From: Escherichia phage vB_EcoP_SU7
DNA length: 64,000 nt
Sequence record: NC_070980.1
Strand: one strand, 5' to 3'
Shown: positions 13,305 to 64,000 of the stretch, piece by piece
Numbering within the stretch: the stretch's first letter is position 1
Layout of the letters: each line of letters opens with the position of its first letter
Program-made: the position numbers and the translations under genes
Notes under the pieces: generated by a model
What the model was told of the DNA's origin: nothing
Seen by the model: only the letters and a program-made list of their open reading frames with translations
Databases searched by the model: none

Positions 13305-13322
13305 TCTTATAATGTATATAGG
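13305..13322 (+). promoter_or_regulatory. candidate promoter with TAATGTATATAGG motif
   Basis: TTATAATGTATATAGG about 35 nt upstream of the 13355 start; the same core recurs at 23084-23096 (-), 23157-23171 (+) and 35528-35543 (-). Confidence 0.35.
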
Positions 13323-38544: not shown

Positions 38545-40328
38545 GGACGTGCCTCCCCTTCTTGTGCAAGTAAGGAAGCTGCATCCTCTCCATTGGTAAC
38601 GGTAAAAGGATGCTCTTCATCAACTTCATGATCTTCTCGTTCTACAAGACGACCTGTTTCATTGATGTATTTGGTATAGCAAACCCCTGTCTGTCCATAG
38701 TTACGCTCTTTGAGCAGTCGTATGATTGACAAGTTTTTACCTAACCCATCCGCTTGTTTGTTACGTTCAAAACCAATAATACACTGACACCAGCGCATCA
38801 ATGAACGTGAACCAGTAAACTGTACTTCTTTAACCTGACCACCTTCTTCGTGGGGTGCACCACCTGCCGGAGCGTTCAAGTGAGATAATACAAAAGCAGT
38901 GAAGTCTAATTCCTTACACATACCAGCAAGCTCTGAAGCAATCTTGCTGATTTCTGTGTTTACCTCAGATGGGGTTAAGTGAGATACCAATGCAGTGATG
39001 TTATCAAGAATGATAAATTTACACTGATTCTCAACTACCCAAAAGCGAATACACTGCTTAATGTCTTCCCACTCGTTCTGCCCAAAGTTGTCATACAAGA
39101 AAAACTTATCAGCGTATCGAAGTGCTTCATCTCGTAGCTGGCTTTCTTCGTACTCAACATCTGGTCGGTGGAATGGAATAGATGCAGATTTACCTGCAAT
39201 GTTCTTAACAGACATGCCTACCTTCTCTTCCAAGAAGAAGCCACCACCATTAAAACCATGCTCAAGGCAAAGCCATGCTACTAGTTCGTGTGCGATTAAG
39301 GTTTTACCTGAACCAACACCACCGCCGATTGCAACCATCTCTCCCCAACGAATACCAAAGGTCATGTCGTTAAGAGTTTTCCACGGATAAGGAATACCCC
39401 ATTCCGCTTTCTTCAGAGCATCTTCGAGGCAATCAAAAACTGTAACAGCTCCAGCAGGAGATTCCCGCTTAGCTGAATATTTCAGATTGTTGAAAAGCTC
39501 TTGACCTCTCCCTGCAAGTAACATGTCGTTTGCATCTTTGATTTCCTTTTCTTGTCCGTTATAAGTGAACGTACCTTTTGGAATCCTTGCAAACTTAACA
39601 TGCGGGTACAGAGAACGACCCTTAGTTAAAGCAATCTCACCTGCATCATCATTGTCCATGCAGAGTACAATCTCCTCGAAACCATTAATAAAATCACGGT
39701 TTCTTGATAATACAGAAGAGATTGAACCTGCACCGAACGGAAGAGAGACGCAAGCAGGTTTGATGTTAGTTGCGTTTGTAAACGCGGTAAGTACGTGGAA
39801 CCCAGACATACAAGAGAGAGGGTCTTCAAAGATGAAGAGTTTCTTGTTGTATACGTCACCACGTTGTGCTTGAGCCATACCAAACAAGTCGGCTTCTTTC
39901 ACATTACCTACATAATAGAACTTCTTGCTGTCTAGAAGTTTTACTTCATATCCAACAATGTTCCCATCACGTTCACGAGGGAAGAAGTAGCTGTCAGGAG
40001 TTTGACCATCTGTTTGGCTTAAACCGATACGGCATCCATAACGTTCAGATACAGCTTTAGGAATTAAGCGACGAGTCAACTCTCCCTGAGGAAGCTCTAA
40101 GCAATCGTCTAAGACTTCTCGGAGTTCTTCAGGGGACAGCTCTTTCTTTTCATTAGGAGTGGGCGTCGTTCCTTTCTCGAAGATTTCATACGCACCACAT
40201 CTGTTACATGAACCCCACTCCTCACCGGACTCTTCATTTCGGAAGAGAATCATGTGATTGCGGGTCTTATCACGACCATGAGAGATACACTCTTTACAGC
40301 CCGTGTCTCCCAAAATGATCTTTGACAT
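38538..40328 (-). CDS. DNA primase-helicase (T7 gp4-like)
   Basis: N-terminal zinc ribbon; [15 protein letters not shown]; Walker [10 protein letters not shown]; Walker B FIILDNI. Confidence 0.85.
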
Positions 40329-59893: not shown

Positions 59894-60703
59894 CTTTCAA
59901 TTGTAAGGGCGCTATTGCCCCGCTCTCTATGAGCTTTTTAAGTCACTATTAACTTAACTATAAACGCTCACTACTAAACGCTTATAGGTAAGTGGGGCGG
60001 TCTTATCAGGAGTTAACCTTGCCGCCCCCTTATCCGTGATGTTTCATCTGGTATCTTTAATTAGTCGCTATAAACGAAGCCGACCTGATAGCGATGATCA
60101 ATCATCACAATAAGGCAGTGCGTCCGACACTATTTAATTACTTTATCGTAACCGTCGGCAATATCGTCTACTTTGCTTTCGCTCCCGCCTATCCTTTTGT
60201 ACTAACTCTCAATCGCTAACCATCGCCCACTACGGGAGGTTATTGCGAAAGAGTCATTAGCCGTCTAATACATTGACGTTTTATATCTTTCAGCAGGTTT
60301 ACTACATAAACTGATTATGTACGCCATCAATAGTGGCCTCAAATCATTCACATCGTAAACGTTCACACTAAACCTTATTGTTAAATAGCAATTTGCCACT
60401 TTTTAACCACTCCCCGCCGCTCGCAATTGAGCGTTAATTCTTCGGACTTGTCTACCCTGATTAACTTCTTTCACTGTAGCGCCTTGTTAGCGATGACCGC
60501 CGCTACCCTTAACCGTGGGCGATTAGCTTAAGTCTTTGCGTGCACTCAATGAATCCGTCTATCAGTGGTGACGTTTCCAGTAAGGGATTGTAAGATTGTT
60601 TTCTCTGATAGTTTAGAGAATCTCACACCGTTTTATCTGGTATGCTTTCCGATGGTTATTATCATCAAGCATATTCAACCGATATAGGAGAATGTTTAAA
60701 TTA

Positions 60704-61489
60704 TTAAAGAGCGGTAAATCTATCAGTGTGCTTTCTCACACTATGCAACTGTTAGCCGTTGTTACGCTTTTCTTAAGCGGTGATTTGCTTAAGTGATGTG
60801 CTCATTATGAATCATGCTGTTTTAGCTGTCAACCACTTTTTTAAATCTTTTCTCATCTATTCTTTCGAATGACTAGTTAATCACGCATTGGATTAACAAG
60901 ATTGTAAGCGGTTGCGCTTAACTTTCTGATTCATATTTTTAAAGAGCGGTGTTTCTTACTGCTTAGTGAACATTCTAACAGAACGTTTCACCTTGTCAAC
61001 TCTTTTTATCGTCTTCTTTTTATTCTCTTCCCTTATCTCGCGTGAATCTTTGCGAAAGGGCAAGACGATAAATTGTTAAAGAGCGGGGCACTAAGTGCCG
61101 GATGTTTTATGTCATCACTGACCGTGTGAACATCTTATCATAATGATTCGATGTGTCAACAACTATTTTTCGATTAATGCATCTTGATAAACTAGCGACC
61201 GTTAAGGCCGCTAACCTTACCTTAGTTCATACGTTTAAAGGTTAAATCTTTATCCGTACTTACCAGCGATAACACCGCAATAGCTTTGCCTTTATCGGCA
61301 TCGGCTACCATCTCTTTTGCCTGCTGTAATGTACTACCGACTATTCTCATAATCATGTTAGTAACGTTAATGCTAGTGCAAGTGATTTGCGTGTCTTTGC
61401 TTGAGAAGGTATACACGTTCATTGATAAATCCTCATTATGGCATGGTTGGGAGTTTATCAAGATACACTAATCGAATTATTAAAGAGCA
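60704..61489. repeat. array of four TTAAAGAGC(G/A)(G/A) motifs, each followed by a short hairpin
   Basis: TTAAAGAGCGG at 60704, 60949 and 61076; TTAAAGAGCAA at 61479; each preceded by AT-rich sequence; lies within and just past an ORF-free region. Confidence 0.5.
61222..61461 (-). CDS. small hypothetical protein
   Basis: 79-aa ORF. Confidence 0.35.
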   Translation of the reverse strand: MINSQPCHNEDLSMNVYTFSSKDTQITCTSINVTNMIMRIVGSTLQQAKEMVADADKGKAIAVLSLVSTDKDLTFKRMN

Positions 61490-61782: not shown

Positions 61783-62109
61783 TTACGGATTGGTGCAAGT
61801 GCCGTTGCCTGATGCTATTTCGTTCATCGACTCATCGAACAACGTCATGCTAGATCGCATCATGTGATCTATGGTGACTTGTTTGCCTGTTGTCTGATTG
61901 ACCAGCATTGCAGACTTACTATCAACTATCTTGCTGTCGTAGTCGTTAAGGTCAACCAATATTGCCTTGCTGGACTTCTTGCCAGTGTCGTAGTTTTCCA
62001 TAAGATAGGTGCATTGCAGACCATCTAAACTGGCCTCGTTGAATACGGCAGCATGTGACACGGAAGAAATAGCGAACAAAGCAGAACATACAGCTAATTT
62101 AATTTTCAT
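61783..62109 (-). CDS. secreted/periplasmic protein
   Basis: ATG at 62109; signal peptide MKIKLAVCSALFAISSVSHA. Confidence 0.45.
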   Translation of the reverse strand: MKIKLAVCSALFAISSVSHAAVFNEASLDGLQCTYLMENYDTGKKSSKAILVDLNDYDSKIVDSKSAMLVNQTTGKQVTIDHMMRSSMTLFDESMNEIASGNGTCTNP

Positions 62110-63222: not shown

Positions 63223-63499
63223 TATTACTACTCCTGATAAATGAAAGATTGTTTGTCGTGTGTGGTTACTTAGGCTGATCAACCTTCACTACTCACTATC
63301 ACCGCTAACTACTTTACATCACTGCTTCATTAACGATAATTCAAACTACGATTGCAACTATATATTAAAGGAAAAACTTGTCAACCACTTATTTTCAAAC
63401 TGTTTAGATTTCTAATCACAACTCATTGAATCTAAAAGAAATTTAATTTACTAAACTTTCTTGTTCAGAGATATAGCTTACTACTTAATAACACTTATA

Positions 63500-63610
63500 G
63501 AACGGGTAGCAGACCAACGGGATAGATGCATGGGTAAGACGTGCCGCATAGGTTAGCCAATGGGTAAGAAGCCTAACGGGGAAGGGGAAACGGGTAGGGT
63601 ATAATGTAAG
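63500..63610. repeat. cluster of about six degenerate A(C/T)GGGTA(A)G repeats ending in a TATAAT-containing motif
   Basis: ACGGGTAG, ACGGGATAG, ATGGGTAAG (x2), ACGGGGAAGG, ACGGGTAGGGTATAATGTAAG at 11-28 bp spacing in an ORF-free region. Confidence 0.4.
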
Positions 63611-64000
63611 TTAGTTACAGGTAACAGGTCAGACCATGCGGTAATAAATTACCAGTCAAAAATCTACTCATCAAAAGAAAAAAGAAACGCTGAAAAAGAA
63701 AAGAATAAAAGAAAGAATAAAAATAATAACTAAAGTAAACAACTACCAATTCTCATTGCTACGCAATGGACTAAAACCAGTCTAATGATACATACATCAA
63801 TAATCCACTCATGAAACATTAACATAAGTTATTACATTCAAACGTGGGGAAGTGTTAGCAACAGTATAGTTTACATAGGTTATCATTAATGTTCTTACTA
63901 TTAATACCGGTTAGTTATAGTCACTATCAGTATGCCTGTACAGTGCTAGCCTTTCATCCCTTCTCAACATGAGTAAGAGAAATACGGGTAGGAAATCACT

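Follow-up and report, generated by a model that had tools for sequence, protein, structure and literature searches.

Paralogous one-stranded heptamer arrays around the left boundary of the terminal repeat in phiEco32-like phages: possible recognition sites for DNA packaging

We analysed a stretch of 64,000 nucleotides from the genome record of Escherichia phage vB_EcoP_SU7 (NC_070980.1), hereafter the window, whose right end carries an array of heptamer repeats, all of them on the plus strand, ahead of the direct terminal repeat (DTR). Megablast and blastn searches with the last kilobase returned matches in phiEco32-like Escherichia coli podophages, the closest relatives (Bas86, PAS59, UKE3 and EK010) showing 82-93% identity over the end region, and by this similarity the window is that of a phiEco32-like podophage of the Gordonclarkvirinae (Suseptimavirus and Kuravirus). 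Late genes occupy the plus strand up to around 17.8 kb, and middle and early genes follow on the minus strand up to 63222/63282. Early transcription in phiEco32 runs leftward from the right end, and the order found here (leftward early genes, promoter and non-coding region) is the same as at the right end of phiEco32-like genomes. The region consists of the non-coding DNA that extends from the last early gene to the right genome end, and it is a right-end cis-acting control region. In agreement with a first-pass annotation made from the letters of the sequence, which had described around 700 bp free of such frames, the list of open reading frames (ORFs), which covers those that end within the window, contains no complete ORF of at least 60 amino acids (aa) in 63283-64000; the longest ones there have 51, 44, 31 and 31 aa. 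The 44-aa ORF (63615-63749, minus strand) was considered as a hidden gene and taken as non-coding, its translation being rich in Phe, Leu, Ser and Tyr and the tract being rearranged in PAS59. A search for structured RNA in Rfam gave only two chance-level snoRNA matches (E = 0.36 and 0.96), both far below the gathering score, and no match to IHF, DnaA, Fis-like or GATC host-factor sites was found in the region. The features discussed below are collected in Table 1.

Table 1. Features at the window's right end, in window coordinates; a slash within a sequence marks the DTR boundary.
Feature	Position	Strand	Basis or remarks
First early gene, 166 aa	62722..63222	-	ORF list; left edge of the non-coding region
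Near-consensus sigma-70 early promoter (predicted), TTGACA-16-TATAGT	63384..63357	-	promoter scan, 11/12 matches
Most widely conserved non-coding block, AATTTAATTTACTAAACTTTC	63417..63500	.	between promoter and array 1, upstream of the promoter
Array 1, seven A(C/T)GGG(G/T)A-type sites	63502, 63517, 63530, 63548, 63560, 63576, 63590 (63502..63598)	+	
TATAATGTAAG, candidate phage-sigma promoter (phi32_gp36 type)	63600..63625	+	directed right, toward the DTR
Dyad block GCGGTAAT-AA-ATTACCAG	63638..63655	.	conserved as GCGG.A.TAAT(A)TACCA in all lineages
A-rich purine tract	63655..63740	+	core ACGCTGAAAAAGAAAAG (63687-63703), tandem AAAAGAAAAGAAT units
Conserved blocks ATACATACATCAATAATCCACTCATGAA and CAAAC(G/T)TGGGG	63788..63850	.	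conservation profile and sequences of relatives
Left DTR boundary, CCTGTACAGTGCT/AGCCTTTC	63935..63955		cut equivalent between 63947 and 63948; alignment with phiEco32
First 53 bp of the DTR	63948..64000	+	holds the first array 2 site and a degenerate ATGAGTAAG at 63969

Five of the seven sites of array 1 are exact AYGGGKA heptamers (ACGGGTAgc at 63502, ATGGGTAag at both 63530 and 63560, ACGGGGAag at 63576 and ACGGGTAgg at 63590), and two degenerate copies, ACGGGATAG at 63517 and ATAGGTTAG at 63548, stand midway between exact ones. The four strongest sites are 28-30 bp apart, with weaker sites between them and an overall period of around 15 bp, and TATAATGTAAG follows directly 3′ of the array at 63600-63610. 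This clustering is far beyond chance. Five copies fall within 100 bp, whereas the largest cluster in 300 dinucleotide-preserving shuffles of the whole window contained 2, and when the G-rich segment alone was shuffled 5000 times, a mean of 0.20 copies and a maximum of 3 were obtained. On the plus strand of the whole 64 kb, AYGGGTAR occurs at eight sites, four of which belong to array 1, with a fifth at 63984. The repeats that the first-pass annotation had placed at 63500-63600 are thus real, with exact as well as degenerate heptamers in that place and in numbers beyond those of the shuffles, although what it called GGGTA iterons is better written as A(C/T)GGG(G/T)A. Nor do the repeats have the form typical of iterons, which are direct repeats of 17-22 bp in helical phase, as the core spans 7-9 bp and the array shows no power at 10-10.5 bp.

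The geometry of array 1 is conserved. Counted from the leftward promoter, the four strong sites lie at +122, +150, +180 and +210 in PAS59, Bas86, EK010, UKE3 and Bas88 as they do here, TH34 has the same spacing 11 bp closer to the promoter, and the phiEco32 sites are at +129, +158 and +187. The start of the array is accordingly 122-129 bp from the -35 element of that promoter in the relatives and 111 bp in TH34. Within the array, the A.GGG core of the strong sites shows 90% conservation, compared with 73% at the other array positions.

To the right of array 1 lies the genome terminus. The phiEco32 record has an identical 193-bp redundancy at both ends, which starts with AGCCTTTC and is preceded by CCTGTACAGTGCT; this DTR was determined experimentally and confirmed in YF01 by full-length nanopore reads (PMC9965538). 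In the window, the corresponding CAGTGCT/AGCCTTTC is found at 63941-63955. YF01 and 4E8 have DTRs annotated from the homologous base onwards, the records of UKE3 and HC-25922 begin at the same boundary, and that of IME267 ends there. The proposal that the region might lie near a genome terminus is therefore borne out, with the phiEco32 boundary aligning to a position shared by the records of these five relatives; the terminus has been mapped in relatives, and the virion DNA ends of SU7 are placed here by alignment. The window ends exactly 53 bp into the DTR. Since the DTR of SU7 was given as 53 bp by PhageTerm, and the UKE3 record stops at +56, the deposited genome probably ends at the window edge. 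A second copy of the terminal sequence is absent from the window.

The deposited terminal redundancies of these phages disagree, with 53-56 bp, around 105 bp (EK010) and 275 bp (PAS59) against 193-206 bp in Kuravirus. We considered the 275-bp repeat annotated in PAS59 as the true DTR and discounted it because its boundaries are offset from all the others (phiEco32, YF01, 4E8, UKE3 and IME267) and the PAS59 paper is silent on termini. Both boundaries of the phiEco32 DTR read GCT/AG (CAGTGCT/AGCC and GAGCGGCT/AGGC), the left one, at 63945-63949 in the window, forming the palindrome GCTAGC, and this shared sequence may be the signature of a nuclease cut site.

The site at 63984, ACGGGTAgg, is the only one in the window that belongs to a second array (array 2), which begins 36 bp after the DTR start and whose continuation beyond the window end was read from Bas86, Bas88, TH34, TH43 and PAS59. 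In the window lineage, array 2 has sites at +36, +65, +93 and +108 from the DTR start, and in phiEco32 and YF01 at +36, +65, +79 and +92, so that the first two positions are invariant in both lineages although the reported DTR lengths differ (53, 193 and 206 bp). Both arrays are present in every relative examined that shows both regions, and no minus-strand match to the motif occurs from the promoter rightwards in the 11 genomes in which the promoter landmark was located. Their internal geometry is alike, with sites at 0/28/58/74/88 in array 1 and 0/29/57/72 in array 2, and in phiEco32 the two align in register, 68/104 positions being identical (z = 6 against shuffles). Judged by this alignment, the two arrays are paralogous modules of around 100 bp each in the same orientation.

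The motif itself varies in parallel in the two arrays. At homologous sites of both, the window lineage has ATGGGTA where phiEco32, YF01, SGF2, IME267 and one IMG/VR genome have ACGGGGA; the site that opens each array is unchanged (ACGGGTAG), and a third lineage (4E8, Bas89 and EP335) has ACGGGG(N). One of these genomes, IME267 (MZ398243.1), is a natural recombinant, in which the non-coding region at the right end and the DTR are of the phiEco32 type, with ACGGGGA arrays, and the sequence just right of the DTR end (GGCT/AGGTCC…) and the putative small terminase (TerS) are of the window type.

Parallel change of this kind could arise even if the arrays had no sequence-specific function and were a duplicated G-rich remnant whose copies are kept similar by gene conversion. 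The two arrays are, after all, paralogous and always inherited together, and short-tract conversion could yield parallel changes. However, two orthologous arrays resemble each other no less than two paralogous ones do (71/100 and 68/99 identical positions compared with 68/104 and 53/74), contrary to what recent conversion of the whole module would leave, and therefore recent wholesale conversion fails to explain a parallel two-base change at five or more sites. The better conservation of the A.GGG core than of the spacers, the maintenance of strand, spacing and position across genera and the persistence of an ACGGGTA site in relatives of 82-90 kb also speak against a remnant, and we consider this explanation very improbable.

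Those distant 82-90 kb relatives carry AAATACGGGTA and GGGTAGG-type repeats upstream of a conserved DTR core, AAATGAGGACTCCCC, and Salmonella phage 7-11 has a one-stranded array of its own, GT(A/G)TGGATA(G/A). Scans of IMG/VR with conserved 14-16-mers gave mostly chance matches and gained one phiEco32-type genome and two distant relatives. Because distant relatives of the C3 morphotype (7-11, at positions 916-990 and around 590-640 of its record, and those from IMG/VR) have their own array, the core AAATGAGGACTCCCC and a purine tract of related sequence (CTGAA(A/G)A…GAAAAG), the architecture of the end region seems to be older than the subfamily. Taken with the conserved strand and spacing, the conserved core and the paralogy, the parallel motif change suggests that the heptamers would be recognition sites for one sequence-specific factor. 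A protein-binding array, which is what the first-pass annotation had seen in the repeats, is strongly suggested by these features and by the existence of a second array, but it is not proven by them.

To the left of array 1, the sigma-70 promoter shows little or no variation in all 11 relatives, and 4E8 has it annotated as a promoter. It is predicted to drive the leftward early genes, and the SU10 paper likewise describes one sigma-70 promoter upstream of the last early coding sequence (CDS). The idea of a strong early promoter region thus holds insofar as a sigma-70 promoter lies around 120 bp from the array, on the minus strand, but not for the element that had been singled out, GGGTATAATGTAAG, which lacks a -35; this element resembles instead the single-element promoters of the phage's own sigma factor and is directed toward the DTR. 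Between the sigma-70 promoter and array 1, the most widely conserved block of the region has a per-column conservation of mostly at least 90%, and it is the sole part of the query (query positions 60-236) with BLAST matches in all distant Kuravirus-like genomes.

On the other side of array 1, the candidate phage-sigma promoter overlaps two dyads, ATGTAA-N5-TTACAG and GTTAC-AG-GTAAC. Its TAATGTAAG, within TATAATGTAAG, agrees with the phi32_gp36 consensus tAATGTAtA (PMC8948821) at 7/9 positions, that is, with 2 mismatches. The extended form TATAATGTA has three copies in the window, the others lying at 13308 (+) and 46416 (-) just upstream of ORF starts. The element is retained in the window, 4E8 and EP335 lineages; phiEco32 and YF01 lack it. 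Perfect or near-perfect copies of TAATGTATA are found in intergenic positions just upstream of ORFs at 13310 (+), 23087 (-), 23158 (+), 20963 (-) and 46418 (-), and the sigma factor of the phage itself is likely to use these as promoters, of the kind mapped in phiEco32. Farther right, around 25 bp at 63748-63772 (aattctcattgctacgcaatggact) are absent from all 11 aligned relatives and form a lineage-specific insertion, which separates the purine tract from the conserved block that follows.

The position of the arrays relative to promoters could mean that they regulate early transcription, with a phage or host factor bound at arrays 1 and 2 that activates, shuts off or insulates the two terminal early promoters. 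Array 1 lies 118-215 bp upstream of the leftward -35, and array 2 lies upstream of a rightward early promoter at the left end, where a conserved promoter-like TCAAAT…TATATA precedes gene 1 in relatives. The near-constant distance between array 1 and its promoter fits such a role, as does the intervening block, the best conserved of the region, and phiEco32 is known to switch off sigma-70 early transcription (PMC8948821). Nevertheless, the constant distance may only reflect the conserved block itself, the two arrays share one absolute orientation whereas the two promoters diverge, array 2 is placed exactly relative to the DTR cut, and the shut-off factor gp79 acts on RNA polymerase and not on DNA sites (PMC8948821). 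A role in early regulation is, in our judgement, unlikely.

The purine tract starts around 55 bp after array 1 and gives the array an adjacent A+T-rich region of the unwinding type. Between 63658 and 63732, it is 58-68% A and 76-82% purine at the core, in keeping with the A/G-rich tract noted earlier at 63650-63740, and its tandem AAAAGAAAAGAAT units are 12-13 bp long (TRF). The core ACGCTGAAAAAGAAAAG is at least 90% conserved throughout the subfamily and remains recognisable in 7-11 and in distant contigs. RNA transcribed from the tract is predicted to be unstructured, folding worse than shuffled sequences (z = +1.5). DNA curvature prediction had been among the checks suggested for the region, and strong static curvature finds no support: the 10-11 bp periodicity of the tract is at the 12th-52nd percentile of the window, and a strong static bend is unlikely because the A-tracts are not helically phased.

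Such a tract brings up the main rival to packaging, a replication origin, in which the heptamers would be iterons for an initiator and the rightward promoter would fire into the 85-bp A-rich tract, priming being achieved because the purine-rich transcript forms a stable RNA-DNA hybrid or because the DNA melts. A promoter combined with an AT-rich region is the design of the T7 primary origin and of T4 oriF and oriG, and T7 also has secondary origins, phiOL and phiOR, near its ends and beside its repeat arrays. The order of array, TATAATGTA promoter-like element and A-rich tract is conserved in three lineages; the composition of the tract, the persistence of its core even in 7-11 and the distant IMG/VR relatives and the unstructured transcript fit as well. 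Yet phiEco32 and YF01 lack the promoter-like element and keep both array and tract, no DnaA box or IHF consensus occurs in the region, and a search limited to neighbouring genes found neither an initiator-like nor a DNA-binding domain in the four nearest early proteins. Moreover, the sites, short and spaced at around 15/30 bp, differ from iterons as described above, and array 2 lies inside the DTR with no comparable A-tract adjoining it. We therefore regard an origin as a serious but rather doubtful candidate.

By analogy with known packaging systems, the reading that we favour, tentatively and as something short of an even chance, is that the arrays, which flank the DTR cut, serve DNA maturation and packaging as recognition sites. 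Array 1 is located 350-446 bp ahead of the DTR start and array 2 is located 36-115 bp after it; therefore, the left DTR cut site is bracketed in the concatemer, and both arrays consist of repeated sites close to a presumed terminase cleavage site, as in pac or cosB regions. Phages of this family are reported to package T7-style from concatemers. From the arrays, their conservation and their position, all of which can be read directly, we infer protein binding, the kind of binder and packaging as the process served. One sequence-specific phage protein, probably oligomeric, would bind the A(C/T)GGG(G/T)A sites, and the maturation and packaging machinery (terminase or an accessory factor) would find the concatemer junction by the arrays, which would also position the cut at GCT/AGCC and make the reaction directional. 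Late in infection, the junction might be opened or transcribed with the help of the easily melted purine tract and the rightward phage-sigma-type promoter. Packaging is favoured because paralogous arrays that bracket the junction, one of them at an invariant distance from the cut, reproduce the layout of terminase-recognition regions and of T7.

Several observations weigh against a packaging role. The most direct concerns TerS, whose gene is located outside the window: the motif variant does not track the putative protein across recombinant genomes, so that the search for co-variation was negative. In IME267, the TerS candidate is 98.6% identical to the window type, yet the arrays are of the phiEco32 type (ACGGGGA), and TH34 and TH43 have window-type ATGGGTA arrays with a TerS candidate that is only 91-92% identical. 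The arrays are, in addition, physically linked, and their joint inheritance, for instance in IME267, is not independent evidence. The distance between array 1 and the DTR is variable, around 326-457 bp, in contrast to the constant distance to the promoter, which fits a promoter-linked role at least as well. To our knowledge, the function of the T7 arrays, which serve here as the analogue, is itself unproven. Finally, the candidate was named TerS on the basis of a remote-homology statement (PMC9965538), and it has no sequence match in Pfam or PDB.

In a broader and, we think, improbable scheme, a dedicated DNA-binding protein of the phage, other than the putative TerS, would recognise the heptamers, its specificity having changed from ACGGGGA to ATGGGTA in one of the lineages. 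Transcription-primed end replication would then be coupled to terminal-repeat duplication and packaging by a single module, made up of the two arrays, the rightward phage-sigma promoter and the deeply conserved purine tract, and if this were true, the same logic might also explain the end repeat arrays of T7.

Among the neighbouring genes, the one bordering the non-coding region (166 aa) has an AGGAG 8 nt ahead of its ATG, and a 501-bp CDS is annotated at its position in PAS59, Bas86 and UKE3. Its product aligns to positions 128-285 (of 290) of the profiles phrog_21410 and phrog_36409 and corresponds to only the C-terminal half of the 290-aa phi32_128 family, of which relatives carry a short or a long form irrespective of their array type. 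Another early gene, at 61783-62109 (-), encodes a 108-aa protein, one of the four nearest early proteins mentioned above, that matches phrog_13168 (“terminase”) and is annotated as “terminase” in many relatives. The protein begins with a typical signal peptide (MKIKLAVCSALFAISSVSHA/AV, the slash here marking the end of the peptide) and has no Pfam domain; it is almost certainly a small secreted protein that carries a propagated misannotation. It was also considered as the binder of the heptamers and rejected, given its signal peptide and the lack of a DNA-binding domain. Within the early region, a second stretch of around 1.3 kb with very short ORFs only, at around 59900-61200, holds 2 of the 3 strongest 10-11 bp AA/TT periodicity signals of the whole window, especially at 60290-60470, which suggests intrinsically curved DNA. 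This stretch is probably the counterpart of the multi-promoter spacer that separates genes 120 and 121 in the description of SU10.

We found no description of the heptamer arrays in the literature searched on phiEco32-like iterons, pac sites and repeats, a body of work outside which the primary phiEco32 papers (PMC2587145, PMC3275717) fall. The SU10, SU7, YF01, 7-11 and Privateer papers discuss the DTR, the CCCTTTTTTA repeat and promoters, and not the heptamers. The arrays are an independent new example of one-stranded end arrays or of terminase-type recognition arrays and not a new kind of system. The recognition of the concatemer junction and the duplication of the repeat are poorly understood in phages with short exact DTRs, T7 included, and the phiEco32-like phages offer an independent and naturally variable case, with paralogous arrays of fixed geometry, a motif switch and recombinants such as IME267. 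Given these natural motif variants and recombinants, function can be tested in sequenced, cultivable therapeutic coliphages. On a more practical level, CAGTGCT/AGCCTTTC and the arrays should help annotators in trimming and orienting assemblies of Kuravirus and Suseptimavirus, among which the ends deposited so far disagree (53, around 105, 193, 206 and 275 bp).

How far do the arrays resemble known systems? The transcription signals described in phiEco32 are sigma-70 early promoters and gp36 single-element promoters with the sequence tAATGTAtA (PMC8948821, PMC4281155). The sigma-70 promoter of the window is the counterpart of the one predicted upstream of the last early gene in phiEco32 and SU10. 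By contrast, none of the six mapped gp36 promoters is at the position of the rightward candidate (PMC8948821), phiEco32 itself being devoid of the element here, and the heptamer array is part of neither promoter type. In comparison with replication origins (lambda ori, plasmid oriV, the T7 primary origin, and T4 oriF and oriG), the region has in common direct repeats beside an A+T-rich tract and a promoter-like element directed into the tract; unlike them, it has short, unphased sites, no initiator gene nearby, no DnaA box that we could find and a second array in the terminal repeat.

A further parallel may be found in packaging sites. The R sites of lambda cosB, pacL and pacR of SPP1 and the pac hexamers of P1 provide a directional assembly point for an oligomeric small terminase. 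As in the arrays described here, several short repeats lie tens to a few hundred bp from the cleavage site, and in SPP1 (mentioned in PMC7672466) and P1 they do so on both sides. The differences are that the motif variant in our case does not co-vary with the putative TerS, that no IHF site was found, and that the genome has exact short terminal repeats rather than cohesive or headful ends.

A similar architecture is found in T7, in which CCTAAAG occurs on one strand only, at 17, 41 and 60 within the repeat, at 175-340 after it and at around 39620-39710 before it, in arrays that were reportedly named SRL and SRR by Dunn and Studier in 1983. The two systems differ in motif (CCTAAAG compared with AYGGGKA), in phage family and in spacing, which is around 13 bp in T7 and around 15/30 bp here; furthermore, there is no array after the repeat here if the DTR is of 193 bp, and array 2 straddles the repeat end if it is of 53 bp. 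In both, however, a motif is found at least three times on one strand, inside the terminal repeat or next to it on the side of the unique DNA. Both share a one-strand heptamer that recurs early in the repeat as well as in arrays of the adjoining unique DNA, a phage-specific promoter across the junction (phiOR in T7 and a candidate here) and a short-DTR genome packaged from concatemers, a resemblance that is one of architectural analogy rather than of homology.

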